Assembly (NCBI GenBank): GCA_965645245.1
Contig: OZ287069.1
Location: forward strand, 1,612,001 to 1,676,000
Length of the DNA: 64,000 nucleotides
Source: Massalongia carnosa
Taxonomy: Eukaryota
Reading direction: 5' to 3'
The notes beneath the pieces are model-generated. The model was not told the DNA's origin. It was given only the letters and a program-made list of their open reading frames with translations, and searched no databases. This document shows positions 6,887 through 39,596 of this stretch, in pieces. The translations under genes were made by a program, and so were the position numbers. Each line of letters begins with the position of its first letter. Within the stretch, counting starts at the first letter, position 1.

Positions 6887-7497
6887 ATTTAACTACTCCG
6901 TACTAAATTGTTCTACTCTTAACCCACTACACTACTCCTAGTCCAGAGTCACTCTCACAGTAGTATGGGCAAGGTATGGAAGAAGAGCTTAGGTTGTGGA
7001 TTGTCCTATCCTACATAGAGCAATGATCAAGCACTTCAAAGGGTAGCATTTAGTCTACCCTTTGACCGACCCTATCTATTTGTACCTCTATTGTGACCAT
7101 CACGTTGTGTAGCCGCCCCTGTGGATCCCGTCTTCCAGTAGTGAATGCCTACTGGGAGAAGGTCTCCCCGTTTCAATTAAACAGTTTGATTGTATTTCAC
7201 AAAATCGAGAATCGATTTTGTCACGATTCTACTCGGCACGACGCATTCACTTCCATAACAGATTTAACGAAAATAACAAAACGTATGTATTATGTACATG
7301 TTATAAATATAAATAAACATTGAAATTTATAAATAAAATTCAATAATACAATAATCATGATCATATCAAGCGACGACGTTACGAACATGAAAATAATGAA
7401 ATTGTGACGATGTTTTGTTAGGTCGAAATAATTGTCGTCTTGATCGTTAAATCATATCTGATTGTAATCTTGAGCTCAGACGTGCTACTTAGCCAGG

Positions 7498-8102
7498 CAC
7501 GCGGGTGACAAAAAAAATGACAACGTGCAAGCGAATGTGACGGTTCAACCAGGATGTGGAATTGACTATCTACTGGGAAGCTATGCACTAGAAAATATCA
7601 GAAAGGAAACAAGCAAAAGGTGCTCTCTCTAGGAGTCTATATAGATAATCGCTTTGCCCGATCCAGCTGCTTGTGTCTCCATCAATAAGTGAACAGTTTG
7701 GTCAAACAGTCTTTCTGCCCTTTGTCCCTTTCATCCATTTATGTTTGCTTTAGAAGGTCGTTCCGATGCGTCCCTTTCAGAACCTCCTGTTGATTGCCCT
7801 TAAGATTGCTAAAAGGGTTGAGTAACGGAAGCGGTTAGTGCGCCGGCAGATGCCGTACTTTCCTTTGGGTGGATGTGGTTGAACCGTGACAGCGAAAACC
7901 ACACCAAAATCTTGTTCGCGTTACCCCTTTACACATGATTAAATCATATTAAACCACATGAAAAAACCATCATGAAAACAACATCATTGAATAAGATATG
8001 GTGTTACTTTAGAACATCAAAGCTGCACTTTCACTTATCAAACTGGAAAACCTAAACGTACATTTATTTCTACACGTTGTCATTTATTTTGCCACCCGCG
8101 TG
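7498..8102. mobile_element. MITE of the CACGCGG-ended Tc1-like family, 5-bp TSD CCAGG, carrying a solo LTR
   Basis: About 30-bp TIR CACGCGGGTGRCAAAAWAAATGACAACGTG at both ends. CCAGG at 7493-7497 and 8103-8107; single CCAGG at the paralogous empty site 10606-10620. Confidence 0.8.
7536..7891 (+). mobile_element. Solo LTR, 356 bp, 5-bp TSD GCGAA
   Basis: TG...CA ends with a 16-bp inverted terminus TGTSACGGTTCAACCA. GCGAA at 7531-7535 and 7892-7896. Second copy at 10690-11054. Confidence 0.8.
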
Positions 8103-8627
8103 CCAGGCACATCTGAGATACCGAGGCAAATATGTACGTGGCACTAATTCTAGGTCATTTAGTAAAGAATATCAAGTGGAAGTTAGATTACATCATCTCT
8201 GTTTGAAAAGGCTGCAGACTTTAGAAAAGATAATGGCGCTCCAACTATTACACCACCAATAACTTTGATCTACGCATGCATGTTTCGTACAGAAAAGAAT
8301 GGTCTTGAAGATTGTCGACATATCTCCGAAAAACCCGCTTTGACGGCTGTCGTCGAATAACGCCATCGTGCAGATGGATTTCATATGGCCCTCACAAGTC
8401 CGATTTCCCCTCTTCGAGGCAGACATCTATATGTAGTCAGCCAGAATCTGTAGAAGGCCAGCCCAAGCTCAGACTACTTATAGAGCTCAATTCTCTACTT
8501 TGAAAATTCAAGAATTGGAAGCCCAACCCAATACCAAGAAACCTTCGACGTCGGCGAAGCAGCTAGCGATAAGCCAAACAGCAAGTTATTTTGTCAGGTC
8601 CCTACAGTATTATCTCCTTTATATATA

Positions 8628-10087
8628 ATGGAAATCTTCACCGTTTTCATTGGCCTTGCGCTATTCATCATGTCGTTGACTCCTGGAGGGCTAGCAAAAC
8701 CGGGATTAGTTTCAAAAAGGCAATATCAAGCTAGGGCAGAAAAAATTTTATCAGAACACCCTTTAATAGGTTCTCTACCTTCCACCAATTTGTTGTGACC
8801 CTCAAGCCTAATATGTAACGTAGATGGGCATGATGACTTGGCTATCCTTATCCGGGGCCTTTACCAGAATCATATATTTGATTCAAAGTTCACAACTAGT
8901 TTTGAGAATGGAACTTTCCCTTACCATGTTGATCTTGCGCGACTAAAGAAGGGAAAGGTTGGGGGAACATTTTGGGTTGCTTATATTCCATGTCCTTCGG
9001 AGAGTGATAATTTCTCCGACTCGATTTATGCTTCAAGTAGGTTTCCAGCTCTTCAAATACCAAAAACAGTCGTTTGTTTGGGGTTGCGAAGCTTTGGTCG
9101 TTCCGAGCGTCATGAAGACTTTGTAGCCCCCAATGCTGATAAAGTGCAGTTGTCGCCGAAACTCTACAACAGATAGACCTACTACATCGTCTCACAACTA
9201 AATACTCTGCCCTTTTCTCACCTCCAGACATTGATAGTGCTAGCGCCATTGCAGTCTTCAAAGATAAAAAGATCATTTCACCGTTCGCTATCGAAGGGCT
9301 CCATCAGATTGGCAACTCCTTTTCCAATCTTAGGTTATATCGATCTTTGGATGTAAAGTATGCCACTTTGACCCACAATTGCCATAATGCTTTCGCAGAC
9401 GCAGCACTCGTCGCAGATTGGTCAGGCGAAACAATTAAAGCTTCTCCTTACTGGGGTGGGGTAAGCGATCGTGGACATCTTCTCATTAAGGAGATGAATA
9501 GGATCGGGATGCTCGTGGATCTCTCACACGTGAGCGCGAATACTATGGTAGACGTATTAGGCGGTCGTCCAGGCAAATGGGAGGGCAGTCTCGCCCCAGT
9601 GGTCTTTAGCCATAGCTCGGCATATGCAATTTGCCCGCATCCTCGAAACGTACCGGACGACGTCCTTGAGCTTGTGAAGAAAACAAACTCCGTCGTAATG
9701 GTGAACTTCTCTCCCAGCTTCATCTCATGTGTGGCAGCAAACAACACCAATGGTCTCCCAGATACTGTTAAAGCCAATGCAACCCTCGATCAGGTCGTGA
9801 AGCATATCACGTACATTGGGGATAAAATCGGATACGATCATGTTGGGATCGGTAGCGACTATGACGGTATCGAGGATATCCCCAAGGGACTAGAGGATGT
9901 GAGCAAGTTTCCAGATTTGGTGGCAAAGCTGTTAGAACGTGGACTGTCCGACGACGATACAATTAAGATCCTAGGTGGAAATGTCTTACGTGTATGGGCG
10001 GATGCTGACAAGGTTGCCACAAAATTACAAAACGACGGCCTTCATCCCATCGAAGATACTATCAAAGGTATTGACGCTGTTCTCTAG
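8628..10087 (+). CDS. Secreted/membrane dipeptidase (peptidase M19, renal dipeptidase/GliJ family), 3 exons
   Basis: Hydrophobic N-terminus MEIFTVFIGLALFIMSLTPGGLA. PLI-DGHDDL spans intron ~8770-8823; second intron ~9038-9149. Motifs IEGLHQIGNS, LTHNCHN, VDLSH, FSHSSA, HPRNVPD, GIGSDYDG. Confidence 0.9.
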
Positions 10088-10689
10088 ATGATCTAGGCGG
10101 AAAGATCGGGCGGTTTTGCATCGAGGTTAGGAAATTATAGATGGCTTGTATTTAAGTCTCAGACTCTGTCCACTTTCTCTCCAGCGAAACTTAGATATCA
10201 CTGTTCAAAACTTGAATATATTTTCTATACTATGCTTTCAGGGAAAGTACCCAGAGGTGACTGGTCCTCATTTTTTCAAAAACCTCCAGAAGTCTGTCTG
10301 ATCGTCTACTCTACTTGTGTCGCTTACAATTGCTTGATTCTCCTATTCAAAGTAGCGTACATTCATGATTTACGTAGTTATGACCTATCCCGCATATCAC
10401 CCGAACAGGTGTTCCCACTAAAATTATATTTCGCTTTGCATAACATCCATCAACTTTGATTCTGTATGCTCATGCTGTCATTGTCTGACTTAATCGTGCT
10501 ACAACCACGACTTTTAACATTATATTGAGTTATCAGACTGTTTTACAAAGCACTTTAGCCACTAGACTTTGCTGAAACATCGAAAACGTTCAATTCATCC
10601 TCAAACGTGCCTGGCTAAGTTCCTTCGGGTTAATTACGTAGCAGATCTGTAGCAACTCTGAGCTCAAAATTCAAAGATTACGATCAGAT

Positions 10690-11054
10690 ATCCACCCAAG
10701 GCGCATCTGCCGGCGCACTAACCGCTTCCGTTACTCAACCCTTTTAGCGGTGGATTGGACGGTCATGGGACCGAAAGCTCCGGGACGCTAAACCTTATTT
10801 CCATCTACGGAAACCGTAGGTGGCCGGTCACCATCAAGCAATCATAGGGGCAATCAACGGAGGTCAGAAAGACTGTTTGACCAAACTGTTCACTTATTGA
10901 TGGAGACACAAGCAGCTGGATCGGGCCAAGCGATTATCTATATAGACTCCTAGAGAGGGCATCCTTTGCTTGTTTCCTTTCTGCATCTTTGATATTTTCT
11001 AGTGCATAGCTTCCCAGTAGATAGTCAATTCCACATCCTGGTTGAACCGTCACA
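10690..11054 (-). mobile_element. Solo LTR of the same family as 7536-7891, one end truncated by about 17 nt
   Basis: Near-identical reverse complement of 7536-7875. AGATA on both flanks; uninterrupted site at 7441-7470 (reverse complement). Confidence 0.8.
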
Positions 11055-11074
11055 AGATATGATTTAACGATCAA

Positions 11075-11245
11075 TGTAAGGGTTCGACCAAGCGTGGTGC
11101 GGACGGCAGGACCTATAGTGAACATGGTAGGAGTCTCAATTATAGTAGAATAGAGCTTGGTATGCGGATTAAGTATTGTGCCTTTTGGTCGGGAAGGATA
11201 GGTGGCGCAATGGTAGAAATCTATTCACTATCTCGCTTCGTCACA
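11075..11245. mobile_element. Short solo LTR (171 bp), 5-bp TSD ATCAA
   Basis: TGTAAG...TCACA ends. ATCAA at 11070-11074 and 11246-11250; empty site in copy 1 near 7431-7450. Confidence 0.7.
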
Positions 11246-12896
11246 ATCAAGATCGGGTTCAAATTATTTATGCGGGTCAACGGGTTTAACCGTTCAACCC
11301 GATCAATTTTTTTGCAAATTAAATATGAAAATTAAATAAAAATATGATATTAAAAACGATACTTTTTTAGCTGACAAATCATAATTTTCTGATGATTAAT
11401 TTCTGAAATTTTTGTAAATTTAAAATACCGAATTATTTGGCAGACAAGACCCTGGTCTTATGGGTCAATTGATCGGCCGAAGGTCATTTGGGACAGGGTT
11501 TTATGGGCTATAGGGTCTTTTATATAGGGGGGTTTTATGGGCGAGGGGGCATTAGTCAGGCCCTATAAGCACGTACTAAATTTGCATCGTGCACCCTGCT
11601 GAATTTCGTGCATTTTTGATCTACAAGAACAACGTTTTAGACTCAGTTCATCAGCAATTCATTCATAAACTTCTTGTTATTATGGCTCCTCCTCATACTC
11701 AGAATCTTCTGCAGGCTTCAAAACAGCCCCGTCCTGGGCCTGCTGTGAAGTCTTCAAGTCTTCGTAGCATAAATCAGGCCCGAATTTCAAAGAACGTTTA
11801 TATTCAGCCTTCCATGCCCACCGTACCAACCTCTTTTTCTGGCGATCAGGAGACTCAGCTTCTGGAACAGTTTCGTCTTCATCGCGAGGAGGAAGGTCAC
11901 AATTTAATTGATAATGCTCCCGATGACGAGGATGAGATGCGACGACGTATTTCCTACACCAGAGAGCAGAAATTAGCTGCTATTAGTTATGCAGAGACTA
12001 CCTGGAAGCAGCAAAAGAATGGAGGTTTAAAACGAGATGCTTAGGGACAGTCCCCCCGACCGTCCCCCCCCCTGTGTGTAAATCTTTGCTAGTAAACAGC
12101 CATTTCACTGCTTATCCAGGGTGCGTACAAGCTAGTAATGCAACTGCCAACAGCACATTAAACTCTTTTCGGTTTAAATCGTATGACGTGTTATTGCTAC
12201 TAATAATTACCCTACTCGGTCCTCACTCACCCTCACCCTCACTTACCATTTGCCCTTGCCTATAAGACAATCGGTGCAGAAAATATGTGATGAGATGCGG
12301 AAAAAACAATTAGATCAGGAGATTTTGTGCAATCAACAGCGAATACGCAATCCTAGGTTGATCGATAGAAATGCTTTTGCGCTACTCATTGGGAAAATTA
12401 CGCATCATGCCATTGGCCTCGTTTCAAGAGAACTCGATGCCGCCAAATCATTAGCTGAACGAATCCTTTCTATTGTCCCTGATGGTGGAAGCTGTGTTTA
12501 TGATTGTGAATTGCCTTTAAGGTACGGTCTCCCATGCAAATGCTGGTTGTATAAATGCATCATCGACTCGGCCCCTATTCCCGTTTCCCTCATCCACCCC
12601 CGCTGGTTTTTTGATGGCCCACCTTATGCGGTCTCTTGGCAAATGACCTTCGCTTTCGCTCGCGGCTCGGAGCCCGAGGTCGAAAAGATTGTCGATGAGG
12701 TCGAAGGGACGGGAGAGATTGAGGCGGATAAGGATGAGGTCGAGCTCGAAGAAGGCGTGTTGAGTGAGGATAGATTTCGCCGCGAAGGCCTTGATTTGCT
12801 ACATTCTGTGACATATCAATCTATTGACCTGCATCAATCAATAGAAGATTCTCATCGAAGGGAGGAGTACTCTCGCGAGCATGCTCACATCGTTGA

Positions 12897-13619
12897 TGAT
12901 GATGATGATGATGATGATTCTTATTCCGATGTGGTACCGGCCGAAGGCCGGCCCATGCGGGCGAGTCTATCTAGTTTTATAGTACATGGAAACCCTTTTG
13001 AGGAAGAAAAACCATGCAATCCTGTGTCCGGCCGAGGACCCTCCGGGTCCCAGCCGTGTGCTCCATGAAAAAACCTTTGACCTAAGACAAGTATGAAAAA
13101 TAAAACAAAGCATGCCTACTGTTAGCAGTATAGATGCTGTGCTGTCAGCGAAAATTGTGACAACAAACCTGTCTTCATTAGCCACTTTGTGACTAATTTC
13201 ATTGCTTTAGATGACTCAGTGATTAATCGATAGTTGTTTGTGCTATCGTATTTAGCAGAGTTTTTCTGTCGTTGAGTTTGCAAAACATGATCACATGTTT
13301 TGCAGTCTGTTTGTGCCAGCCACATGAGCAGTTCGGGGACGAGACGTCTGGGACTCGGTGTCTATGTAGGAAGGCGGCTAGGCCTATCTTTTCTGAGCGT
13401 ATCTGAATGGCTAGCGCGCTCTCCGCTTTGGCTAGAGTTTCGTGCAATTTGATGCGTTTTTTGGAGAGTGAACCTGATTGTGCCGGGGTGGGAACGGGTG
13501 TGTGTTCCTGATATGATCTCCACGAGGCCTGCCATGCAAATGTGTGTAGTTTTATTTGAGCAGTTATTTTGTTATGAGCGGCGCGTGCCTCCCCTATTTC
13601 TCGGGCGAGATTCGGGGGG
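12897..13619 (-). mobile_element. 5'-truncated Tad1-like LINE fragment with (ATC)n tail and 14-bp TSD
   Basis: Minus-strand C-terminal zinc knuckle QIRSEKIGLAAFLHR...CSCGWHKQTAKHVIMFC. (GAT)n at 12895-12918. GCTCACATCGTTGA at 12883-12896 and 13620-13633. Confidence 0.82.
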
Positions 13620-14483
13620 GCTCACATCGTTGAAAAGTTCAATAAGAAATGGCAAAAGAAGGAGCTGGTAAGACCTCTCATCCCCACCACATTCCCCGAC
13701 GAAATTCGGCCCAAAGAAAACCTCATGTATAAGAAAGGAGGGAGTCGTCGACGTGCCCACACTGGTTGCGAGGCAGCTGAGGCTAGAGAAACTGAACAGC
13801 GACGTACTAGGCGAAGGGACTCTATTGAACAAGGGAGGAGGCTTAGATATAATAGATTGCGTGCTGGGGGCGACGATGAGGTTGAAGGTGAAACAGAAGG
13901 TAAAATTCACGATGTTGCAAAGTTATTGCGCTCGGGTCGGCTAATATTGGGTACAATAGGTTTAGGAGAAAACTTAGTTATGGAGAGAATCGAAAACGCG
14001 TCTATCGTCTCCGACGACGATGACGAGGTGCAGTATATAAGCACTCAGCCCATTCTCGGTCATTCTATGGATCTTATGCTTCCTTCGGATGACGATAATG
14101 ATGTTATTCTTAGATCAGAAGCCTCGTCGGATTCGCTCGAAGACATTGACGATGTGCTTGCCAAGCATAGTCAAAAAGCCCTGCCTCAGGCAGCGCCGGC
14201 TCCATCTCTTTATAGTCTTAGCCAAAACGTGCGCGCCAGTCAAATTCTCCCTACTTCCTCTACAACAACGCGAAGGTCTCGGGGTGTGGCGAAGAAATCA
14301 AAGGCTCAGTTGGAGTTGGAACCTCAGCAAAGAGTCGAGAAATCAGTCAAATAGGCTAGGGCTCAAGCGAGAAAGGAAACGGCGATGAGAAAGGTGGCTA
14401 AAACCATGAAGCCTAGAAAAGATGATGTATCGCAATTGGCTGATGAGTTTTTGGAGTTGAAGTCATCGCAATAGGTAGATTTG

Positions 14484-14787
14484 TAGGTGTTGAATACACT
14501 TAGTCAGTAACAGCAACATTATAGGTGTTGAATACACTTAGTCAGTAACAGCAACATTATAGGTGTTGAATACACTTAGTCAGTAACAGCAACATTATAG
14601 GTGTTGAATACACTTAGTCAGTAACAGCAACATTATAGGTGTTGAATACACTTAGTCAGTAACAGCAACATTATAGGTGTTGAATACACTTAGTCAGTAA
14701 CAGCAACATTATAGGTGTTGAATACACTTAGTCAGTAACAGCAACATTATAGGTGTTGAATACACTTAGTAAGTAACAGCAACATTA
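14484..14787. repeat. Minisatellite, 8 x 38 bp (TAGGTGTTGAATACACTTAGTCAGTAACAGCAACATTA)
   Basis: Seven identical units plus one with a single substitution, head to tail with no spacers, just inside the MULE right TIR. Confidence 0.95.
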
Positions 14788-17004
14788 CTAATACGTAGTG
14801 TAATTGCTAGCTTGTACGCACCCTGGATGAGTAGTAAAATGGCTGTTTACTAGTAAAGATTTACACAGGGGGGGACGGTCAGGGGGGCGGTCAGGGGGGG
14901 ACTGTCCCTAAGCATCTCGGGTTTAAAACTCATCAGTAAATATGCTGCAGCGGCGAATCTCGGAATTACCACTGCTATGTTAAGACAGTGGATTAAAACG
15001 ATGACGCATATTGAAACACTTTCTAAAGGTAGACGAAAAGAAAGTGGAGGAGGTCCCTGTCAAGAACCTGAGCTGGAAAAGAGTCTTTTGGAATTGTTTG
15101 AAGAAGCTCGATTAGCTGGACGTAAAATCAACAAACGTTGGTTTATTCGTCAAGGACGCAAGTAGTACGGCGAAATGTATCCTCATAGAGTGATCAAAGT
15201 CACCGATGAGATGACTGAATATAGCGGGTTCAAATTCTCTGATGGCTGGTTTAAACGTCGAACTCATGTAGCTGTCAGAACTCCAACCAAAAAAGCTCAA
15301 CAGGTAAATCATTCGTTGAAACGACACGAAACATTTTGACTAACCCGATTTGATGCATGCAAAGGTGTCAGAGAATTTTCGCGCTAATATTGAAAGCTGG
15401 TTGCAATTCAATCGTCGCAATTCTCAACCACTTTCACATCAGATTCCTTTGCATGGAGGCAGATATCGACTTTGTGACATTGGCAACATGGATCAAACTC
15501 CGATTGCGTACGAGTTTCTTCAGGGTCAGTGCTACGATTTCAAGGGGGCCAAAACGGTATGGGTGAAAACTTATCGATCTAGCTGGGACTACAGGCAAGC
15601 CACATTGATGATATATGTTTCTGCTGATGGCGTCAATCGCTGCAAACCCTTGCTCATTTTCAAAGGACAAGACGGGCCAAAAAACAGTCGAATCAGAAAA
15701 GAGATGACCATGTACGATTCGGGGGTAATTGTGCAGTGGAATGTGAAGGCCTACTGCAATGCGGAAGTCATGATTCGATGGCTAAAACAGCAATACAAAT
15801 ACGCTACAGTGGGACTGCATGACACAAATACACGGCGATTTTTATCCTTAGATGTGTTTGCAGGTCAAAAAACGCAGGAGGTAAATTGAATTCAATAATA
15901 GCTTCATTTAATTAACAAATTTGCAGGTCAAACAAGCCTTTCGTGATTTAAACATCACGGCTTCTTTTATTCCTTCCGGTTGCACCGGTTATGTGCAGGT
16001 TCTCGATGTTGCTATCAATAAACCTCTCAAGACTCGAATTTCCGAGCTGGCCGACATTCATTACGATGAAAATTTCGAGAGATGGAGCAAAGGATCCTAC
16101 ACAGTAGGTGATCGACGGGTTATGCTAACAAAATGGGTGGGTCAAGCGTGGAGAGAACTGCATGCAAAACACGTTTCTCTCATTCGTCAAACATTTCGAA
16201 AGCTGGGGTTATCGCTCGCTATTGACGGTTCAGAAGATGAAGAGTTGTCGATCAAAGACATACCAAACGTTCAGGTTGGTGATTGGGCGCTATCCGTCAA
16301 TCAGGAGGACATTCAGGAGGTACGAGAGTCTGAATCAGACGTGAATGAAACGATGAAGTCGGTAGAGGCTGAGAAGGTTTTCTCTGAAGACATGGAAATG
16401 GAATATGTAATGGAGGATGAATTGGAAGATGACGTGAACGATCAGGAGGCTGTTTTTGATGTTGAAGTAACAGAACATGCAAGCGGTGATGAACTGAGTA
16501 GAAGAGGGGATTAAATTTCCGGTTCAATTGATTTCTAAGAAAGGATACATAAGCTTTGATGACGTTTGCATATAAATTTATGTATCTTTTCTTTCAATTC
16601 AAAAGGACCTGGTTTTATGGCCCAACCCCCCCCTATGGTCAAAAATCAGCCAATCAGAACAGGGTTTTATGGGCAAAGGGGTCTTATACTACAGGGTTTT
16701 ATATGCCAAATAACTCGGTATGCATAAAATGTTTAATTAAGACGTTGCGGGAGGGATGAACTGAGCGGTGTGCGTGGTCCACTACAGCTAGGAGTACAGG
16801 AGAACAAACAAACAAGAGAAATAAAACAATAGTATGAGAACGATAGCTAGACTAGTCAATGTAGCTATGCTACGAGCGTGCTTGCTGACTATCTGAAAGA
16901 CTGTCACCTGACTTCTCCGAGACCTCTGCCAAGACTCCGTCGGAAAAACTAACCCCCGAACCGCTAGCAATTTTGGTTTTTGGGCCTACAGTCGAACCCC
17001 GCTA

Positions 17005-19328
17005 ACGTAATTCACCTGTATTCAGAACACCCGCTTATTCGGAACTAACAAAACCACGAAACTTACTTTCAACCATTATCTCTTCTACAACTTATTGAAA
17101 AAAACCCTAAAACTGATTTAATGAGGCAAAGGGTATTATAATCATTATAATAGCTGATTATCGATAAATTACATCGCTGAAATGGCTTCTTCCCGGCAGT
17201 TTCGAGTTACAAAATCGGGATTGCGTACCACCTTGAAAGACGAGGTTAGAGAACGTTTAAAACAGGCTGTTAAGGTCTATGAGGAGGCAGAAGGGTCGTT
17301 ATCTATTACGCAAGCTGCTTGGCTCCATGCGGTACCGAAAACAACACTGTATCACAGGATAAACGGTCGCCAGGACCAGGTATCGTACGTTACTTCAAAG
17401 CAGAGATTAACGCCCGAGGAGGAAGGATCTCTTCAGAGTTGGGTGCTACAACTTCAGTCTTGGGGATTTCCGCCTAGAATAGCGCAGTTACGCGAAATGG
17501 CAGAGGAATTATTACGAGCCAAACAGGATTTTAAAGAACTGGGCAAAAACTGGTCAGAAAAATTCCTCAACCGTCATACTATACTACAGTCGAAATATAG
17601 CCGTACGCTTGATCAAGAACGGTTTTTAGCTCAAAATCGGGATTCAATACAGCAGTGGTTCGATCTGTATCTGTCTATTAAGGCGCAACATGGTATATTG
17701 GACGAGGATACATACAACATGGATGAAAACGGTTATATGATGGGTATTGCGGGGAGTTCAAAGGTGGTATTTTCAAAATACCGGAAACAGGCATTTATAA
17801 ATCAAGCTGGTAATCGGGAATGGGCGTCCCTCATTGATGCTATTGGTACCACTGGTCGTCGATTACCGTTATTTGTTATTTTAAAGGGTAAGAGATGGAA
17901 AGATGATTGGTATCCTAGTAATATGGAACCGGGTGCTCGTATTTCACTAAGTGAAAACGGCTGGACTGATAACAAGCTCTGTATGGAGTGGATGCGTGAC
18001 TGTTTTGAGCCAACAACAAGAGCTTACCTCCGTGGTAAATATCGAATGTTAATTGTTGACGGGCATGCATCTCATGTGTCGACTGAGTTTATCCGATTTA
18101 CCCGGGAACATAAAATAGTTTGTCTATGTCTACCAGCACACTCAACACACTTATTACAGCCTCTTGATGTTGGGGTATTTGGCCCTTTAAAACAAAACTA
18201 TAAAACGTTGCTAGCTGAGAAAACACGGTTTACAACCTACAATATCGACAAGGCTGATTTCATTTCTTTAATACAAAAAGCTAGGCAACAAGGTATTACT
18301 GCTCGAAACATACAATCAGCATGGCGAGCTACTGGACTTATTCCATACAATCCTTCCGCTGTCTTTGACAAAATATCAGCTAAGCCTCATACGAACGATG
18401 ACACTCTACCTGACGCTAGTACTCCTATTCAAACGCGTTATCTTTCAGGCCAAATACCACCAACACCAGGAAACATAGAACAAGTCTCAGAGGTTGAGGA
18501 GCTTATATTACTATTTCGCCATCAGACTCTCGATTCCCCTAAGCTTACTCTTCTACAAAAAACCCTTAAAGCAGCTAGACTTGCTATGGCTGATCGTATT
18601 GTCTTGAATCGTACTAATACGGAGCTTTTAGAAGCCAGTACACGAAAAAAACAAAGAGCTCAACGTACGGGCACTCAATATGATGGTCAAGGGGCTCGCT
18701 TATTGAGCTTAGAAGATGTAGAGAAAAGAAGACAACTAGCTGAAAATAAGAAAAAGGAGAAAGAGGCTACATCACAGGTAAGGAAAGAAAAACAGAACGA
18801 TCGACTATTTTTTCAGGTATCTAAAGACCTTATGCGACTTGGACCCGACCTGATATACGGGCCTGATCACGTAACATCTCGATCTTTACCTAAAAATAAG
18901 AAACGAGACGATTCTATCTTTCAAAACGCTTTTCACGACCTTCTTCAGATTACACCTCATATTTTTGAGGAGACAGTTGAGGGTGACCTAGGGTTTAAAA
19001 AACTGCTCTGAATAAAGGAAAATGTATATCAAGAAAGAAAAATACCACTGAGTTGGTACAGGGTGATGTGGAAATTGTAGGAAAGGGGGAGAAGGAGGAA
19101 GTTTTAGAGGTTCGGGTTAGCTCGCGCGGTCGTGTCATTCGTAACACTCGTAAATTGTAGCTCTACAAGCTTATGCTAGCTACATATGTTCTCTAGAACC
19201 TGTTCATCAATTCCCGAATACATGTGCTGGAAGTTTTGTGGATGCGGCGGTGATAATAAATTACGAAGGTTGGTATCAAATTTGTTAGTTCCGAATAAGC
19301 GGGTGTTCCGAATAGCGGTGAATTACGT
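17005..19328 (+). mobile_element. Fot1/Pot2-type transposon inserted at a TA inside the left TIR of T1
   Basis: About 48-bp TIR ACGTAATTCACC...ATTCGGAACTAACAAA. TA at 17003-17004 and 19329-19330. Confidence 0.92.
17182..19011 (+). CDS. Fot1-type DDE_1 transposase, 609 aa (tail probably frameshifted)
   Basis: HTH motifs (VPKTTLYHRING; LGKNWSEKFLNRH), catalytic motifs YNMDENG, LIVDGHASH, LQPLDVG. Confidence 0.9.
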   Translation: MASSRQFRVTKSGLRTTLKDEVRERLKQAVKVYEEAEGSLSITQAAWLHAVPKTTLYHRINGRQDQVSYVTSKQRLTPEEEGSLQSWVLQLQSWGFPPRIAQLREMAEELLRAKQDFKELGKNWSEKFLNRHTILQSKYSRTLDQERFLAQNRDSIQQWFDLYLSIKAQHGILDEDTYNMDENGYMMGIAGSSKVVFSKYRKQAFINQAGNREWASLIDAIGTTGRRLPLFVILKGKRWKDDWYPSNMEPGARISLSENGWTDNKLCMEWMRDCFEPTTRAYLRGKYRMLIVDGHASHVSTEFIRFTREHKIVCLCLPAHSTHLLQPLDVGVFGPLKQNYKTLLAEKTRFTTYNIDKADFISLIQKARQQGITARNIQSAWRATGLIPYNPSAVFDKISAKPHTNDDTLPDASTPIQTRYLSGQIPPTPGNIEQVSEVEELILLFRHQTLDSPKLTLLQKTLKAARLAMADRIVLNRTNTELLEASTRKKQRAQRTGTQYDGQGARLLSLEDVEKRRQLAENKKKEKEATSQVRKEKQNDRLFFQVSKDLMRLGPDLIYGPDHVTSRSLPKNKKRDDSIFQNAFHDLLQITPHIFEETVEGDLGFKKLL

Positions 19329-21456
19329 TATAGGGAAGTTCCGTATAACGAAAACCTCGGCATAACGAAATTATTTTTCGGATTTTTTGTAGTTGTATGG
19401 TAAAAACCTCGTTATAACGAAAAACCCCTCCATTACGATATAACGAAATTTATTTTCATATTTTTGGTGACGTTCGTTATAGCGAGGTGGTAAAACTATC
19501 ATATATTTGCTACGATTCTGCTGTAAATATGTCTCGAGAATGGCCTGCCTACATGTCTTTGTCAACTTCCCCTTGGAAAAAAAACCCGTCATGGAATCAC
19601 GAATATTCAGCGAAAAGCTCTTCGGGACTGGTACAATGATGATTCAAAGAATAAAGTGACTCAGAACGACTGTCGCATGTGGTGGAAAAGAGAGTATAAT
19701 TATGTGCCTAGGAGTGCATCTATCAGCGAGATTCTTAGTTCCAAATATACTTACTTGGATGATAAAGAGGATGCGAGTTCAATCAAACGGGAGGTTATTC
19801 CAAAATGGCCTGTGTTAGAAGATGCTTTGTTCGAATGGGAGCAGCGATATGAACAGGCCAGTCTTACTGTTAATGCTGACGTGCTACGGACCAAGGCCAC
19901 CGAGTTGTGGAACAAACTGCCTCAGTATGAAGGTATTCCCACTCCGAAATGGAGCAATGGCTGGCTGGATCGGTTTAAAAGACGACGAGGACTCAAATAA
20001 CGCATTCATCATGGCGAGGCTGGTTCAGCTGATCAAAGCGAAAATGTACAGCAGATAATGACTGATCTTCGTAAATCAGTATCTGAATATGCCGCCAAAG
20101 ACGTTTATAACATGGATGAAACAGGGCTTTTTTGGAAAATGGCACCCGATCGATCTCTTGGTACTGAGAGGCACGCCGGTCAGAAGCAGGATAAGGTGTG
20201 TTTTTCACAGTAAGCTGCTTCAATTTTGCAGAGTTCTAATTATAACAGGCTAGAATCACTGCCTGTCTCACATGTAATGCTGATGGGTCGGATAAACCTG
20301 ATATCTGGTTTATTGGTAAGGCCAAAAGGCCAAATTGTTTTCGGGATGCTAAAATTCATGGACTGGAGAATGTGGGTGCTGTTTGGAGGTATAATCCCAA
20401 GGCCTGGAATAACAACATCATCATGAGAGAATATTTGTATTGGTTAATGGTCATATAAATGGACGATCGATTTTGTTGTTGATGGATAATTTCAGTGCTC
20501 ACAAATTGGCTGTGAAAACTTTGATGGATGAAGGTAAATAAATCAATGTGTTAACGTTATAATTAATCATGACATCATTTCTAAAACTCGTCTATCCAGG
20601 TGTTTTGCAGAATATTCGCATTGCGTGGCTACCTGCAAATGCCACCTCATTACATCAACCTTGGATCAAGGCATCATACAAAACTGGAAGGTCTATGTAC
20701 GAAAACAACTCGTCCAGTTTATGGTAAGTTCTTTCGATGCTGGAAAAGATCCGACTGCCTCCATAAATGTTCTTCGTGTCATTCGATGGGGCATTTCAGC
20801 ATGGGAAAACGACGTCAAACCTTCCACCATACAGAACTGCTGGGGGCGATCAGGAGTCATTGATTGGGGTTCAGCACCCTTCAATCAACCAAGAACCTCG
20901 AGATGGGTCGAGTCCGAGACTGTTTTGCAAGAGATTACACAGGACATACGTCAGATGCAGGTCATGGGTAGAATAGAAGAGGCGATGAACATTCATCAAT
21001 TTATAAACCCGCCCGAGGAGGCTATAGGGGACACAAATGAAGATATTATGAATGATATCGTTTCACGATATGCGGAGCAGGAAAGGCTCGCTGAGACGGA
21101 TGAAGAGGTGGAAGTTACACCTGTTATAACGGTCTGTCAAGCACAGGAGGCTTGTATGATCCTGAGACTGCATGAAGAACAGAAGTTGAAGGGCGATATG
21201 GGCATGCTTCGTCAATTACGAAGGCATGAACGGGGGCTGGGCAAAACAGTCAAAAACAATCTACTTTAAGCACTTGGGTAGTTGCTGGGGACAAAGGGGG
21301 GGAATTGGGAGTTTATAGGGGGCAAAGTAGTAAATTTACTATGATTTTCCCCATCTCCCCCGATATAACGAAAAACCCGCTATAACGAGATTATTTTGGT
21401 AAAACGCCACCATCGTTATGGCGGGGTTCGACTGTACACAGTAAAACTGATATATA

Positions 21457-24732: not shown

Positions 24733-25479
24733 TAGTAAAAAATCGACCGGGTCGTCGGGTCAAGCGGGTTAACCCGGCTCCGGTTTTCTAACCCAACCCA
24801 CGTGCCCACTAGCAGGTTAGGTTTAAACCCGGCCCAACGCGACCCGTTGTGCGGCGTGCACAGAACAACATCATAATTTCATTATTTTCATGTTTGTAAC
24901 GTCATCGTCAATTGATATGATTATAATCAATGTATTATTGAGTTTTTTCGTTATAAATTTAAACAGTTGTTCATATTTGTAATATGCAAAACAATTTTAT
25001 ATACGTCTTGTTATTTTCGTTAAATCAGTTGGGACGCTAATCCGAAGAAGCTTAGCGAAACGGACGGAGCCACGCACGTCTGAGGTACTACAACACAACA
25101 TACGAGTTGAGTACAATATAATCGAGAAGCTAATTTTAGTTCTGGCAAGCAAGGGTCGATACGAGTACTTAACTCTATACTCTGTACTCTAAAGTTAGGT
25201 AGCTACAAAGACACATAGCTACAGAATAAGTTAAGGGAAGTCATCGAAGTTCGATTCCTGTCAGCGCTGGCCTAATGATGGGTGGTAGTTTTGTTTCTTT
25301 AAGCGGCTTAGCTAAGCATTAGTTATCGGCATAACGTATAACTACCTGCGTGCCTACCTACCTAATTAAGAGGCTTCACTTAAGGCACAATAAGTTTCTT
25401 GGCTGGAGAAGTTTGCTGTAAAGTTTTGGAAATGCCGATATAGTTGCAATGAGCACATCCATCAACAAAACTGGCCAAT

Positions 25480-31750: not shown

Positions 31751-32265
31751 GACCTGTATTTGCATTGGGGCGATTCACAGGTGCTTAGAAGTCATTCGAT
31801 GCTTGGAAAGGTATCTGGTTATCTACTAGCGAAATAATCTGCAAAGTCTTCGCGTATTCGGGCCACAGTCTAATTTTGGTGTTATGGAAAGTAACGTTAG
31901 TGGAAGGGCAAGTATACCGCTCTAGCGTAAAAGGGTTGAAACTAGTCTGTACGGTATGCAAGATTTCCCTGCTGGGTAACATAAGGGATTATGCATTATG
32001 TGGGGGCGTCGTGTGGCGCACCCGGGCACCCTACTGTATTCTAAGGGTTCTGATACTGAACGTTATAGAGCACTCTGTCCTCTAAATACTGTATATAGAG
32101 TATTATATGATGCATCACCATGCACTCATGTATACACACATTATGTGATTAGCTAAAATCACCTATAACCAAAATCGGGTGCTGTGCATGGTCCAACTTT
32201 ACCCCACCAAAATTTCCCCCTTTATTTCGTTCTCATCCACCTTTTCACCATTATTCCTATATAAA

Positions 32266-33350
32266 ATGCCCCGAAAATCTCACTATGATACGCCTCAAAA
32301 GGCCAAGGTACAGGGAGCTCATCAGTTTCTTGTTGCGAAAGGAATTTCGCATGATGTCCGTGATATTTTCAGAGAATTTAACGTTGAGGAAAGAGCTGGA
32401 TACAGAATGATTGAAGCAGGATCTTCTTCACGAACTCGTCACAATATTACTGAACTAAATGAAACTCGGGGTTGAAAATCAAAGGTCACAGGCGAGCAGG
32501 TGCGAGAAGCTGATCATATTCTACAAGACGATAATGCTCGAAGGCAAGCGTTATACTTGGGATCAAATTGCTCTCGAGGTCAACGCTGAGGTAGTGGATC
32601 GTACTATGCATCGCATTCTTCAAGCCGCATTAGACTCTGAAAAATGCCTCGCATGTGTGAAAGGATACGTTCCAATGGAACGCAGAATGGAGTTCGCTCG
32701 TGTTATGCTGAAAAAATACCCTAAACCCGAAGACTGGAGTCGTGTTCGATTCAGCGACGAAGTGCATTTTGGATATGGACCCGAAGGTCAACTACGAATC
32801 ATAAGACAGCCTGGTACTCGATATAGATGGGATTGTATTCAGCATCGTGATCCCCCTCCTGAAAAAGATCGAAAACGAATGCATTGTTGGGCTGCCGTTG
32901 GATATAATTTCAAGTCTGAGCTCGTCTTTTACGATGTTCCTGGAAATAGCAATGGAAAGATGACCCATGAGGTCTACATCGACTCCATTCTCAATCCCGT
33001 CGTCAAGTCTTGGCTTGATCGAGTTGACGACTTTATTTTAGAAGAAGATGGGGACTCCGGACATGGCACTGGTAGAACCCGAAATGCAGTCAAGACATGG
33101 AAGGAAAGCAATCATTTGAATCATTATTTTAACTCTTCGTCTTCTCCTGGTTTGTCTCCAATCGAGAACTGCTGGCTACCGATTAAGCAACATCTTCGTA
33201 AATATCCACACTGGGATGATGCGACTCTGAAGGAGTTGATTTTGGAGGGTTGGACTCGTGTTTCTTAGGAATTCATCAATAAACGGGTGCGATCAATGCC
33301 TGATAGACTGTAGGTAGTACTAGATGCTGAAGGTGCAATAACTGGTTATT
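32266..33350 (+). pseudogene. Tc1-like (DDE_3, DD38E) transposase pseudogene of the CACGCGG family; TIRs degraded
   Basis: MPRKSHYDTPQK...RVRFSDEVHFG...LEEDGDSGHG...SPGLSPIENCW with stops and frameshifts; homologous to 33608-34697. Confidence 0.85.
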
Positions 33351-33482
33351 AAATTGAATTTTTCTTGTGTAAACACTGTAAAATCGTGATTGAAAAGGGG
33401 GAATGCATGCAAAATGGTGTGCCGAACTTTGAACCCAAAACTGCGCGGTAAAAAAAAATTAAGCGACAGAATTGTTGCCTCA

Positions 33483-34841
33483 CACGCGGGTGAAAAAAAA
33501 GGGCAAGGTGAGCCGAAACTCCCCCACCAAAACTTACCCCTTTTCTTCCCCTTTTTCTTTCCCATCTTCTTCCTCATTGTAGCATTAATCTCAAATCCAA
33601 CATTTCAAATGCCATCCCACTACGGTACACCTCAAAGGCCAAGGTGCAGGGAGCTTATGAATTTCTTCTTGCAAAAGGCATTTCCATCGATCCTCGAGAG
33701 ATTTTTCAGCATTTTGGCATTCGAAGCGAGAGACGGCTATAAGATCATTCGAAACGGAGCAGCTTCTAGAAGAAGACATCATTCAACGCTCGTTGAGACA
33801 TGCGGTCGCAAATCAAAAGTCACGGAAGCACAAATACAGGAGGCAGATCACATTCTACAAGATGAGGGGCTACAGTTGGAAGGAAAACGATACACATGGG
33901 AACAATTGGCTATGGAGATTGGGGCCGACGTTGTCGGTCGTACAATGCACAATGTTATGTCGGCTGCTCTAAACTATGAGAAATGTCTGGCCTGCGTCAT
34001 GGGATGGCTGGCCGACCCACCTATGGAAAGACGGGTCGAATTTGCTCACATGATGCTGACCAATATCCCAAACCGGAGCAATGGGATCGCGTACGATTTA
34101 GTGATGAGATTCATTTTGGATATGGGCCGGAAGGACAGTTACGAATCATTCGTCAGCCCGGAACACGATATCGTTGGGATTGCATACAGCATCGTGACCC
34201 GCCTCCTGAGAAAGATCGAAAACGAAAACATTGCTGGGCTGCAATTGGCTACAATTTCAAGTCGGATATTATCTTTTATGACGTGCCGGGCAACAGCAAT
34301 GGTAAAATGACTCATCAGGTGTATATTGAATCCGTTCTTGACCCCGTCGTCAAGCCCTGGCTGGAGCGTGGGGATGACTTCGTACTTGAAGAAGATGGAG
34401 ACTCTGGTCATAGCACGGGCAAGACAAGAAATGCCGTCAAGAAATGGAAGGAAGATCATCATTTAGAGCATTATTTCAATTGTGCCTCATCACCTGATTT
34501 GTCCCTATAGAAAATTGCTGGCAGCCAGCGAAGCAGCATGTTCGAAAGTATCCTCATTGGGACGATGTCAGCTTGAAGCAGCTGATTAGGGATGGATGGG
34601 AACGGTGACGCAGGAATTCATCAATGAAAGAGTTCGATCAATGCCCAAACGATTAGAAGAGGTAATTAGGGCTGAGGGGGCGATGACTGGCTATTGAATA
34701 GAATATGTATGTAGAATTGAAATGGTCATACGAATTGAAACGTTGAATGGGGAAGAAGATGGGGAAGAAAAAAGGGAAGAAAAGGGTAAGTTTTGGTGGG
34801 GGAATTTCGGCTCACCTTGCCCTTTTTTTTTCACCCGCGTG
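33483..34841 (+). mobile_element. Tc1-like element with CACGCGG TIRs and 5-bp TSD CCTCA; transposase frameshifted
   Basis: TIR of at least 60 bp (CACGCGGGTGAAAAAAAAGGGCAAGGTGAGCCGAAA...). CCTCA at 33478-33482 and 34842-34846. Motifs RFSDEIHFG, LEEDGDSGH, SPDLS. Confidence 0.88.
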
Positions 34842-34935
34842 CCTCAGTACCTCAGACCTGCCTTGCCACAGCTAAGCCTTTTCAGATTAGTATATAATTA
34901 GTCAGAAGCTTAGTAACTGTTTAGAATAAGATTAT

Positions 34936-37100
34936 CCCTCTCGCTGTCATTCTAGCACCCCCCTCCCAAGCTAATCTATATTGGACTAGCTTCCGCACCG
35001 ATGAGTCATCAGAACATTAGTTTTCTCTAGAGTGTTTGCGCGTTTGTTTACTTTTCAAAGAATACTATTCGGTCATTCAATCAAAATAAATCACATAAAT
35101 TACTATTCTTCTAGCTTCGGAATTGATATTATAAGTATGACGCTCAATGAAGAAGAAATCCCGAGTGTATCAGACAAATCTCCCATTTCAGCGAAGCAAC
35201 ATAAAATAAATCGCAAAAGAAGTGTTCGGGATATTTTAATCGACCTTCCCCCTATTTCCTCAAAATATACCCCCATTCGGGTTGAAAACAGGCCTTTTGT
35301 TCCGCTCGTTGAAAACGATTCTCGAAATCCTTTGGGATTATTTCGGTTATTTATAACAAGGCAGCATTGTCGTATCATCGCAAATCATACCAATATCAAG
35401 GCAAATAACTACATGGAAAAGGAGAAGGAGAACAATCATCGGGTTTGGACTGACACTACTGACTCGGAAATTGAGGTTTTTTTGGGCATATTAATTCTTA
35501 TGGGACTCGATCATCTACCTGCTACAGAGGATTATTGGAATCAACGTCCTGACAAACCAGTTATCATGCCTATTCTGTCCGCGATGTCGCTTGGTCGATT
35601 TCAACAAATCAAACGATTTTTGAAAATCAATAATGGACAGACTGAGCCTATCGGACTTGGTCAAGGACCTGATTGGTGGAAGAAACTGGAACCGTTGGCT
35701 ACTGATTTCCGAAAGACTTCATTGAAACATTGCAGACCAGGAAGTATGATATCTATAGATGAACAGCTGGTGTTATTCAAGGGCCGTTCTCGACATACCT
35801 TGCAGATTACTACAAAAAGTGCCCATAAAGGATTTAAAATCTACAGTCTCTGTCAGGATAATTATCTGTTGTCATTTATGTTTGCCTCGAAGAGTAGCAG
35901 AATAAGTGAATTGAAAACAGTCAGACAATTGGGATTTTTGCCAAAAGATAAACTAACTCCTAGTGCTTTGCTAGTGATTCAGTTATGTAAAGAACTTCCA
36001 TCCTCACTGAATTATCATCTTTTCTGTGATAATTTCTTTACTAGTACGAAATTATTCAAGGCACTTCGATCAATCGGAATAGCTGCCAGTGGAACTGCTA
36101 AAAAGGGCTCGGGCTTTCCAGAAGAATTGTTGGCCATACGGGACGTCACTTCAAAAGGAAAAGACTGGGGTCTTCAGGCCCATATGGTGGTCGACGATAA
36201 GGTGCTTTGTATGGGCTGGGTGGATAATAATGGTGTGCAGTACATGACCACCGGTCATTCTCCTCAGGACTTGTACGAAATGCACTATATAAATCCGCAC
36301 AAGAGATATGGAATTCCCGAGACCTCTCTTCAACCTATTGTATCGTATTTCCCATCAACTCTGGCTCACTCCATTCCCTTGCTCAATCAAGAGGTTCAAC
36401 GGCCCTTAGGATTACCGATACCAGCCCCAATCAAAGAATATAATCTTCATATGGGGGGATCGGATGGAAACGCTCAGCAACGAGCGATTTACTCATACAA
36501 TCGTCGAACGGATCGTTACTGGTGGCCTTTGTTCATTTTTATTTTAGATGCAGCCGGATTGAATGCCTATAAACTTTACTCGCTGAACTCTTTCGATTCC
36601 GAGGAGATAAAATTTACTCGTTCTGAATTTCTTCGTCGGATTGCTCTTGAACTGATATCAAATCAAGCGGGCATCAGGCCCGGCTCATCAAAGATAAGCA
36701 TCAATACCACGATTGATGCTTTAGTACCATCTCCCATTCATCATTACGTTCGTCTTGAAGGCAGAAAAAGATGTGTGCAATGTAACGCCGAGAAAAAACG
36801 ACCTTCAAAGCGGAAGGGAGAGCCACTGGCTGAAATAAGTGTCGATGGGCGTAAAAGAAGGCGAAGGGGTGCTCAGACTATATGGGCTTGTGGAGGATGT
36901 AATCCAATCAGGCCCTGCTGTAAGAAAGCCAGCTGTTGGGAAGCTATTCATATGATAGGGGACGAGTAAATAGGTATCTGATACTCCGTACAACTTCTTG
37001 TGAATAGGAATAACATTGATTGGTCAAAAGTTTAAGGTTTAGCGCTTTCTAACCAACAATGGTTTAGCTTGGGGGGGGTGCTAGAATGACAGCGAGAGGG
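34936..37100 (+). mobile_element. piggyBac-like transposon, flanked by TTAT and ATAT
   Basis: About 38-bp TIR CCCTCTCGCTGTCATTCTAGCACCCCCC...AAGCTA with CCC...GGG ends. Confidence 0.9.
35137..36969 (+). CDS. piggyBac-type transposase, 610 aa, uninterrupted
   Basis: SIDEQLVLFKGR, CDNFFTS, YNLHMGGSD, WWPLF...NAY and a C-terminal Cys-rich finger (CVQC...CGGC...CC...CW). Confidence 0.9.
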   Translation: MTLNEEEIPSVSDKSPISAKQHKINRKRSVRDILIDLPPISSKYTPIRVENRPFVPLVENDSRNPLGLFRLFITRQHCRIIANHTNIKANNYMEKEKENNHRVWTDTTDSEIEVFLGILILMGLDHLPATEDYWNQRPDKPVIMPILSAMSLGRFQQIKRFLKINNGQTEPIGLGQGPDWWKKLEPLATDFRKTSLKHCRPGSMISIDEQLVLFKGRSRHTLQITTKSAHKGFKIYSLCQDNYLLSFMFASKSSRISELKTVRQLGFLPKDKLTPSALLVIQLCKELPSSLNYHLFCDNFFTSTKLFKALRSIGIAASGTAKKGSGFPEELLAIRDVTSKGKDWGLQAHMVVDDKVLCMGWVDNNGVQYMTTGHSPQDLYEMHYINPHKRYGIPETSLQPIVSYFPSTLAHSIPLLNQEVQRPLGLPIPAPIKEYNLHMGGSDGNAQQRAIYSYNRRTDRYWWPLFIFILDAAGLNAYKLYSLNSFDSEEIKFTRSEFLRRIALELISNQAGIRPGSSKISINTTIDALVPSPIHHYVRLEGRKRCVQCNAEKKRPSKRKGEPLAEISVDGRKRRRRGAQTIWACGGCNPIRPCCKKASCWEAIHMIGDE

Positions 37101-37120
37101 ATATTAGCTTACTACGCATG

Positions 37121-38387
37121 CACGCGGCTGACAAAATAACCGGGAATCGGCCAAAAATTTACCCCACCAAATTCTCCCCCCCTATTGCCCTACCACCCCT
37201 AACTTGGAGCTCCGGGCTGCTAAAGCTCATTATTCTACTCCTACCAAAGCTGCAGTTCGAAGTGCCGTTCATTTCGCTGAGCGAATGAATTTGTCCTACA
37301 GAAAACAGGACGTTTTCGAAACATTCAACGTTAGTACAACACGTGGCTATGAGATGCTTCGAAATAAATCTTATTCTTCTTCTTCTCGTCAATTTCATCA
37401 TAATCCTGATGACGAAGAAACTCGAGGAAGAAAACAGCTTATTTCTTCCGTCAAAATTCGGGAGATGGAACGTATTCTAGAAGAAGAAGGAATTGAAGCT
37501 CGCTCCCTGACTTGGCAACAATTGGGCTACGAAGTGGGATTGGATTGTAGTGGTCGTACGGTGCAAAGAGCTATGGAGACAATGGATTATCATAAATGCG
37601 TGTCTTGCAAGAAGGGCTGGGTCAACCTCAAAACTGCTGCTAAAAGAGTTGAATGGTCAGAATTCATGTTAACCAGATATCCTAATTCAGAGGATTGGAA
37701 TCGTGTACGATTTAGTGATGAGGTGCACTTTGGTTGGGGCCCACAAAGTAAACTTCGCATCATTCGAAAACCGGGTCAACGATACTGTCAAGATTGCATT
37801 CAAGAGCACGTGCCAAATGAGAAGGATAAAAAGCGTCGTCATTGCTGGGCAGCCGTCGGGAGTAGTTTCAAATCATTTCTACATTTCTACGATGTGGCTG
37901 GCAATATCAATGGAAAAATGAGTCAGAAGGCATACATTGATCAAATTTTTGAGCCCGTCGTCAAGCCATGGCTTGATAATGGTCAGAATTTCGTGTTGGA
38001 AGAACATGGAGACTCAGGTCATGGACCAGGCAAATCAAACGTCGTTCGTACGTGGAAGGAGAAGAATAGACTGGAGCATTATTTCAATCGTGCCTCATCT
38101 CCCGATTTATCCCCCATTGAAAATTGCTGGCAGCCCGTCAAACAGGAGCTCTACAAGTATCCTCATTGAGACGACGTGACCACCAAGAGCTTGATTTATG
38201 AGGGGTGGGAGCACGTGTCTCAGTCATTTATAGATGAAAAAGTAGCTAGCATGCCAGAAAGGCTAAAAGCGGTCATTGACGGTGAGGGTAAAATTACTGG
38301 TTATTGATTGTACGTAGCAATGCAGAAAGGGATGGTTTTGGTGGGGTAAATTTTTGGCCGATTCCCGGTTATTTTGTCAGCCGCGTG
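37121..38387 (+). mobile_element. Tc1-like element with CACGCGG TIRs and 5-bp TSD GCATG; transposase inactivated
   Basis: About 50-bp TIR CACGCGGCTGACAAAATAACCGGGAATCGGCCAAAAATTTACCCCACCAAA. GCATG at 37116-37120 and 38388-38392. ORF 37204..38169 has RFSDEVHFG, LEEHGDSGH (second D changed to H), SPDLSPIENCW and a premature TGA. Confidence 0.9.
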
Positions 38388-39296
38388 GCATGCTTCGGGC
38401 GGCACAGCGAACTTAGTAAGCAAAGCCTAACTCTAAAAGGTTAGACATATAGTGTAAATAAGTTAGCGCCGAGCTAACCGAAAGAGGTTAGTACAGGCGA
38501 AGGCTGTGCCACAACACGTCTGAGGTACTGAGGCAACAGAATTGGACCACACCAGAATTTGGTGCAGTAGCTAATGGCCCTCCTCCCCTTCACACCACCT
38601 TTTGCAGTCTGTAGGATAAATGATAAGTAGTATTTTCATGTAGATCTTTATTCTTGCTACCTCGTAGTTTCAAAAGCAAACATGAGACGATCATTCAGCA
38701 TCATCATACGCCAGGCTATAAAGTTCAGACTGGAATCGGGTGAAGATGATAACACGATCATAACTGCTACTGGTGTCAGCATCAGACAACTACGTAAGAT
38801 GAGACGTAATTGGGAACAGTTCAATGAGGTTGCAAAACCTCAGCTTGCTGCTGGCCGGCGCAAGAAACTGAATCAACAACAAATCGATCAACTACTTCGT
38901 GTATCTGGATCAGAGACTTACCTCTTATTTGGACGAGATGTGCTGGGTTTTGTATGATGAATTCGACGTCTTGATGAGCGAGTCTACGGTTTCTCGAACT
39001 CTAAAGCAGATGACCTAGAATCGAAAGATGGCCATTCGTATAGCATAACAACGCAACCAATCTTTGCGTGATGAGTGGATGATTAGACTGAGAGGATGAA
39101 GGGCTGATCAGTTGATTTTTCTGGACGAAAGCGCTGCATACGAGCGTACTGGTCAGTACTATTTGAAGAACTTCAGTTTCTTTGCTAATTGTTATTACTT
39201 TAGGTGATCGTCGATATGGATGGGCCGCACCAGGAATCAAACCGACCATGATTCAAGCGCTCAAACGTTCTAAGAGATGGAGTATATTATAAGAAC

Positions 39297-39479
39297 TGTT
39301 AGACTACCATCATGGGCATCCATCTAGTGCCTATCTCGGTGACCCTACCACGGGGTCAGTGGACATGACTCCCTATGAAAGGGGGTCGCCGGAAAGTCTT
39401 CAATGTGACTGCTATATAATGAGTAGATAGCTCACATATAATCCACACCTTCAATGACAATCATGCTATTATACCTACA
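39297..39479. mobile_element. Possible short solo LTR at the deletion point of the IS630-like transposase
   Basis: TGTTAG...CCTACA ends and internal CTATATAA; no TSD. Confidence 0.35.
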
Positions 39480-39596
39480 AAGTGAAGCTATATTTTCATA
39501 GCACTGCAGGCTATAAGTGAAGATATTTCACATGATGCAGGTGCATTGTTTCGACAGTCTAGTATTGAATATAATTCATAAAAATCAATTTCCTCA

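Follow-up and report, generated by a model that had tools for sequence, protein, structure and literature searches.

Variable 5-bp target duplications in a Tc1-like transposon family of fungi

Does a transposon with a Tc1-like transposase have to insert at TA? This dinucleotide target is part of how IS630-Tc1-mariner (ITm) elements are defined (PMC7325037), and a dense transposon nest in the ascomycete Massalongia carnosa raises the question. The window, by which we mean the whole analysed stretch of 64,000 nucleotides (G000:C3:1612001-1676000, in a genome of 52 Mb and 25 contigs), holds three elements that start with CACGCGG (7498, 33483 and 37121) and end with CCGCGTG (8102, 34841 and 38387). 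A preliminary description had placed these ends correctly, together with the flanking direct repeats CCAGG, CCTCA and GCATG, each of which is exact and 5 bp long. It had proposed a Tc1-related lineage with changed target capture, and our analysis supports this: the 5-bp duplication is lineage-wide and TA-type Tc1 families of the same genome keep TA, while the geometry itself we infer. Very probably, the strand-transfer spacing of a Tc1 lineage has grown from 2 to 5 bp, and the lineage has come by convergence to bear hallmarks like those of Transib.

Element 1 (7498..8102, no strand assigned) has the ends and the CCAGG duplication (left copy 7493..7497 on the plus strand, right copy 8103-8107) that had been described, but it is not a plain 605-bp element. 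It is a non-autonomous miniature inverted-repeat transposable element (MITE) of about 244 bp with terminal inverted repeats (TIRs) of about 30 bp, split by a 356-bp solo long terminal repeat (LTR) at 7536..7891 (no strand assigned; TG..CA, with its own GCGAA duplication). The solo LTR belongs to a repeat of its own, for which the genome has 154 candidate positions. Contigs over window positions 5500-12000 break at repeats, and no joint across element 1 was found among those listed. Of the words sampled from this interval, 62% occur in one run labelled lichen metagenome, and no RNA run is among those listed. Element 2 (33483..34841, plus strand, flanked by CCTCA at 33478-33482 and 34842-34846) is 1359 bp long with TIRs of about 96 bp and a frameshifted transposase at about 33609-34694. 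Element 3 (37121..38387, plus strand, flanked by GCATG at 37116-37120 and 38388-38392) spans 1267 bp and has perfect 51-bp TIRs; in its transposase (about 37189-38304) the second catalytic D is replaced by H and there is a premature stop. A fourth, degenerate family copy without intact termini lies at approximately 32195..33359 (plus strand). The transposase is broken in all window copies.

The 5-bp duplication holds across the genome. A protein search yielded 613 candidates and 150 scored hits, and 110 of the top 113 hits were examined (the other three lie in the window or beside an included locus). Paired ends were found in 86 of the 110 loci. The genome-wide tabulation of these copies, which the preliminary description had proposed, gave an exact 5-bp direct repeat in 67 of 86 and TA at both ends in none. 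Chance is excluded as the source of the repeats, since 2000 shuffles of the flanks produced a mean of 0.31 and a maximum of three. With repeated flank pairs removed, 64 of 81 distinct sites carry an exact 5-mer. The terminal pattern occurs 395 times in the genome versus three times for a reversed control, which suggests roughly 200 elements; in ten regions picked by this pattern, ignoring the transposase, 8 of 11 elements have an exact 5-bp repeat. Five TA-type Tc1 groups of the same genome served as controls and show TA at both ends in 10/10, 13/13, 11/12, 5/5 and 4/7 copies (43/47 in total).

The palindromic core of the target, SCWGS, could pass as an extension of the TIRs, so that part of the 5-mer would be element sequence or a pre-existing repeat of the target. 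Such mis-set boundaries are hardly conceivable given that 58 different 5-mers occur among the 67 sites and that they are repeated directly, not in inverted orientation, and the idea is largely refuted by empty sites that carry exactly one copy. Among the loci examined, a paralogous empty site with a single 5-mer exists for 28 of the 67 duplicated sites; 15 of these paralogs are identical over the 17-nt core, ten differ by substitutions only and three contain gaps. In the window, elements 1 and 2 each have an empty site on the minus strand that had been recognised before and indeed matches their joined flanks: for element 1 it is 10606..10620, where the host repeat is present as a diverged copy and the 5-mer occurs once, at 10610-10614, and for element 2 it is 38525..38536, with its single 5-mer at 38529-38533. 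The empty paralog of element 3 is in locus L007, and its 5-mer has one substitution. The duplication is made on insertion.

One repeat site occurs in several states. It is empty in L326, filled by two subfamilies (L034, L035 and L045; L083, whose right flank differs), and in L321 reads 5-mer, CAC, 5-mer, which looks like an excision footprint. Different subfamilies also occupy the same host-repeat site at window positions 37116-37120 and in L094, and the L034/L035/L045/L083 site is likewise an insertion hot spot.

The elements prefer a palindromic target, TA-N-SCWGS-N-TA. Symmetrised over 66 distinct sites, the consensus reads T (0.61) A (0.63) N, S C (0.52) W (0.74) G (0.52) S, N T A. The 5-mers have a GC content of 65%. 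This bears on whether strand transfer might still occur 2 bp apart, the 5-bp repeat arising from host repair or from a slipped attack by the second end. A few sites do have an extra CA or TG or duplications of other lengths, so repair noise exists, but the length is sharply five: no exact repeat of 7-10 bp occurs among the 86 paired copies, and the few of 2-4 or 6 bp fall mostly in homopolymer or periodic 5-mers. The consensus is moreover symmetric around the middle base of the 5-mer, TA lies inside just 11 of the 66 5-mers, and the TA-type families of the same genome yield clean TA. We regard a 2-bp stagger blurred by repair as very unlikely.

The transposase is Tc1-like and its predicted fold is of the Tc1/mariner type. 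Pfam, a PDB sequence search and the predicted fold agree on this, as had been claimed from the motifs. The element consists of a single open reading frame (ORF) between two TIRs (about 1.3 kb), and the protein of the young subfamily has 361 amino acids. It matches Pfam DDE_3 (PF13358, E = 1.3e-9) and, weakly and below the curated cut-off, HTH_Tnp_Tc3_2 (PF01498, E = 4.7e-6); the AlphaFold model (pLDDT 82.8) contains two helical bundles, which supports a bipartite N-terminal HTH DNA-binding domain. Sleeping Beauty was the sole match of the single protein in the PDB sequence search and the only significant match of a profile (E = 1.4e-18). The top Foldseek matches of the model were Mos1 (E = 2.4e-12) and Sleeping Beauty (7.5e-11). 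VIA-align aligned Sleeping Beauty with Z = 20.2 (root-mean-square deviation 4.0 over 212 residues) and the DNA-binding domain of Tc3 (1u78) more modestly, with Z = 5.4 (6.0 over 102 residues). Mos1, Sleeping Beauty and SETMAR scored Z 20.2-17.7 versus 9.8 or less for integrases and other DDE enzymes. Neither a Transib nor a RAG chain was among the fold-search matches listed, and the ESM Atlas returned only DDE_3/Tc1-like or unnamed clusters.

The family shares with Tc1 elements such as Sleeping Beauty, and impala in fungi, the DDE_3 domain, the weak HTH_Tnp_Tc3_2 match, the DDE triad, the SPDL motif, short TIRs around a single ORF and a predicted fold closest to Sleeping Beauty. It differs from them in its variable, GC-rich 5-bp duplication, which stands in the place of TA, and in having other residues for the linker KP, the W of WPxxSPDL and the N of SPDLN. 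The second D and the E are 37 or 38 residues apart (DD37E/DD38E) in 49 of the 60 rows in which the motif was found (78 rows examined), bearing out the spacing first read from the window and not the classical DD34E of Tc1. DD37E and DD38E groups of Tc1 are known (PMC7325037, PMC11544213), and impala is listed as DD37E (Dupeyron 2020, PMC7325037).

The transposase is under purifying selection. Between six subfamilies with 51-77% identity, nonsynonymous divergence (dN) is 0.15-0.43 and synonymous divergence (dS) ranges from 1.04 to saturated. An ORF of 340 or more amino acids is kept in 47 of 86 copies. The 28 copies of the youngest subfamily show a median identity of 99.8%, and 23 are intact; such near-identical, intact copies make recent activity likely. 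Few substitutions separate these 28 copies, their directions are balanced (G>A 20, C>T 15, T>C 16, A>G 12) and there is no sign of repeat-induced point mutation.

A resemblance to Transib had been pointed out and is real: CAC ends and a GC-rich 5-bp target are common to both, and in some Transib families the preferred site is cCASTGg (Kapitonov and Jurka, PMC1131882). Together with the A-tract of the TIRs and the 65% GC of the duplications, these hallmarks would fit ends that are acted on in trans by an enzyme of the Transib kind, or by another that makes 5-bp duplications, with the Tc1 ORF as captured cargo. The ORF, however, accounts for 1086 of the element's roughly 1328 bp, purifying selection acts on it, and it differs from one TIR subfamily to the next. 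The same architecture is retained at 36-70% identity in other organisms, and the TIRs of the nearest TA-type Tc1 family start similarly. The A-tract starts some 10-14 bp inward of the end and is not preceded by a 23-bp spacer, and Transib is reported absent from fungi (PMC5751038). A trans-acting enzyme is on this evidence very unlikely indeed. A search of the genome with the RAG1 model PF12940 gave no match, and no control genome matched either. The enzyme itself is of another type than that of Transib: 361 amino acids with a DDE_3 domain and a predicted Tc1/mariner fold, not RAG1-core-like. The single footprint would agree with staggered cuts more than with the opening of hairpins. We considered kinship of the ends with the heptamer and nonamer of the recombination signal sequence (RSS) and set it aside as convergence or chance, because the layout of CAC heptamer, spacer of about 23 bp and A-rich nonamer is missing and relatives start with CAA or CTC.

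The change in duplication length extends to a second family of the genome. Loci L306-L326 (for example L306:975-2397, G000:C5:1519880-1523689) hold a Tc1-like DD38E family of about 1.4 kb with ends CACAG..CACGTG and variable 3-bp duplications at 11 of 13 sites. Like the 5-bp family it has CAC termini; unlike it, the catalytic domain bears a long insertion. The two are about 20-25% identical, and the 3-bp family has many database relatives. Some of its left ends start with CACAGTG, the RSS heptamer as given in PMC1131882. The nearest TA-type family (L291-L305 and L280-L281, here the L280 family) is DD41E by count, is 29% identical to the 5-bp family and has cysteine motifs and a similar TIR start in common with it. 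Its seven sites comprise four TA and two AA exact 2-bp duplications, which suggests relaxed base specificity. A further set, L111-L140, consists of IS630-like DDE_3 families, some with an apparent intron and longer than 2.6 kb; in two of these families the left ends follow TA, and the right ends were not reached.

Three trees of the catalytic region place the 5-bp rows in one clade (support 100/99, 100/100 and 99). This clade groups with the 3-bp clade (98/88, 90/87 and 95), and the pair joins the L280 family (99/95, 95/96 and 93) among other TA families. TA-type rows are in-genome families, and the grouping of database rows as 5-bp or 3-bp does not come from duplications of those rows. Tree 1 omits seven fragments and two rows without the first motif, tree 2 is a subset, and tree 3 omits eleven rows without the motif; the outgroup is one long IS630-like branch. 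TA is likely the ancestral state, a polarity for which the remainder of the superfamily is part of the evidence.

The family is common in sequenced fungi. Homologues with 46-75% identity occur in named Dothideomycetes, Leotiomycetes and Sordariomycetes, also in Hirsutella and Coniosporium, and in many metagenomes; a profile search returned 488 clusters at E values up to 1e-30, not all of which are family members. From 80 metagenome loci we recovered 35 distinct sites with both ends and flanks. In these relatives (36-70% transposase identity) the 5-bp repeat is exact at 23 of the 35 sites, versus a shuffle mean of 0.29, and TA occurs at none; their sites share the target core SCWGS. The CACGCGG start seen in the window is not lineage-wide: metagenome elements start with CACGCG, CAAGCG or CTCGCG, followed by an A-tract. 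The changed target duplication is real and runs through the whole of this fungal Tc1 branch, which has a 3-bp sister. One metagenome relative, L169:668-2024, has an exact 7-bp duplication.

Variable GC-rich duplications of 5 bp in place of TA make it likely that the strands are joined at cuts five bases apart, not two. By analogy with Mos1 and Sleeping Beauty, a dimer would bind both TIRs in an ordinary Tc1 paired-end complex. Excision would proceed without hairpins, and the single footprint of duplication, CAC and duplication would fit end cuts staggered by 3 nt. A bent target would then be captured, with the target-binding face setting the two scissile phosphates 5 bp apart, and gap repair by the host would copy the 5 nt into a duplication. 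In Mos1 the target is kinked by 147 degrees and the TA adenines are flipped and read by backbone atoms (PMC5481204, PMC6900584). More speculatively, flipping of a central adenine might have been lost, the two TpA steps just outside the cuts might act as bend points, and the spacing change might map to lineage-specific substitutions.

Target choice in Sleeping Beauty is shaped by H187, P247 and K248 (PMC8934666). Among the candidate substitutions of the 5-bp family, the positions of P247-K248 are S-G (73 of 78 rows each). The linker KP is mostly GW (W in 75 of 78 rows), and WPxxSPDLN has become NCxxSPDL[AS], with N in place of the W before SPDL in 77 of 78 rows and A or S after it in 73. Three to four residues are inserted after the second D. 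All six TA-type rows retain [KR]P, W and N; the 3-bp family also lacks the linker [KR]P and the W before SPDL.

Several points weigh against this account. The stagger is read from genomic scars, and exact 5-mers are missing from 17 of the 81 distinct sites (two swapped by inversion, three with extra CA/TG, three with one mismatch and nine unexplained) and from 12 of the 35 metagenome sites, including the 7-bp case and several doubtful ends. Arrays of 5-mer, CAC and 5-mer are not enriched in the genome (12, the lowest count of 32 three-base cores), so the footprint is a single case, L321, checked against its empty paralog. The residue changes are candidates that correlate with the trait only: one TA-type family likewise has G where K248 would be, and the TA-type L280 family shares the loop insertion after the second D. 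The trees contain no named ITm references (impala, Tc1, Sleeping Beauty). A single TA clade remains acceptable in an approximately unbiased (AU) test (p = 0.22), and the direction of change therefore rests partly on the long-branch outgroup and on general knowledge.

Two swapped sites are those of L012 and L013 (G000:C12:908102-922201), inverted copies 10.5 kb apart with exchanged 5-mers, consistent with an inversion by recombination between copies. In L046, L075 and L082, an extra CA or TG separates the end of the element from one of its two 5-mers, which slippage in gap repair might explain.

Other ITm groups also depart from TA. Zator, TBE and Tc4 make 3-bp duplications. The pogo elements Fot (TAA) and Fot-like (TAAA) illustrate that the duplication can lengthen within ITm (PMC7386202). 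These duplications are, however, 3-4 bp long with an AT-rich motif, whereas those of the 5-bp family are variable in sequence and GC-rich, and pogo enzymes carry DDE_1, not a Tc1-like DDE_3. Our search of the open literature, which left Repbase, Dfam and subscription journals aside, found no account of a Tc1 element with a variable 5-bp duplication; in PMC10085805 the 5-bp target site duplication refers to LTR elements. A catalogue entry may exist, because the family is common in sequenced fungi and these databases lay outside the search. In 2005 Transib was described as unique among eukaryotic DNA transposon superfamilies in making 5-bp duplications (PMC1131882), so that under the customary rules fungal MITEs with CAC ends and duplications of this length would be misfiled.

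The 2-bp integration of Tc1/mariner elements has been described as needing the strongest target deformation (PMC6900584). A 5-bp family, its 3-bp sister and TA-type neighbours in one genome offer a series for testing what determines strand-transfer spacing, and a compact Sleeping Beauty-like enzyme with a GC-rich preference and no need for TA could be a complementary mutagenesis tool for fungi. A bolder reading, to which we give about even weight, is that an undescribed fungal Tc1 branch escaped the TA rule and tunes its spacing stepwise, from TA through relaxed 2 bp and variable 3 bp to variable 5 bp. On a scaffold of the Sleeping Beauty type it would have arrived at the Transib/RAG signature by convergence, and active natural copies would exist. 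If this is true, both the spacing and the target choice of Tc1/mariner transposases would prove to depend on a small number of swappable residues.

The window contains other mobile elements. A piggyBac-like element (34933-37103) encodes a DDE_Tnp_1_7 protein (ORF 35005-36969); its inverted repeats start with TATCCC, and no TTAA lies directly outside. Inverted repeats at 33408-43780 and 38548-43704 surround a gene for a Crypton-like tyrosine recombinase, with NDC10_II matches at 41360-43409; this may be a Crypton bounded by TIRs. Regions 16998-19335, 15344-16514, 19506-24739 and 12026-14926 hold Fot1/pogo-like elements (DDE_1, HTH_Tnp_Tc5, HTH_ABP1_N), long nested inverted duplications and unclassified TIR elements, the last with a 38-bp tandem array at 14405-14860. 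A cytochrome P450 gene (51306-53035; Pfam match to p450 only) presumably resembles sterol 14-alpha demethylase (CYP51).

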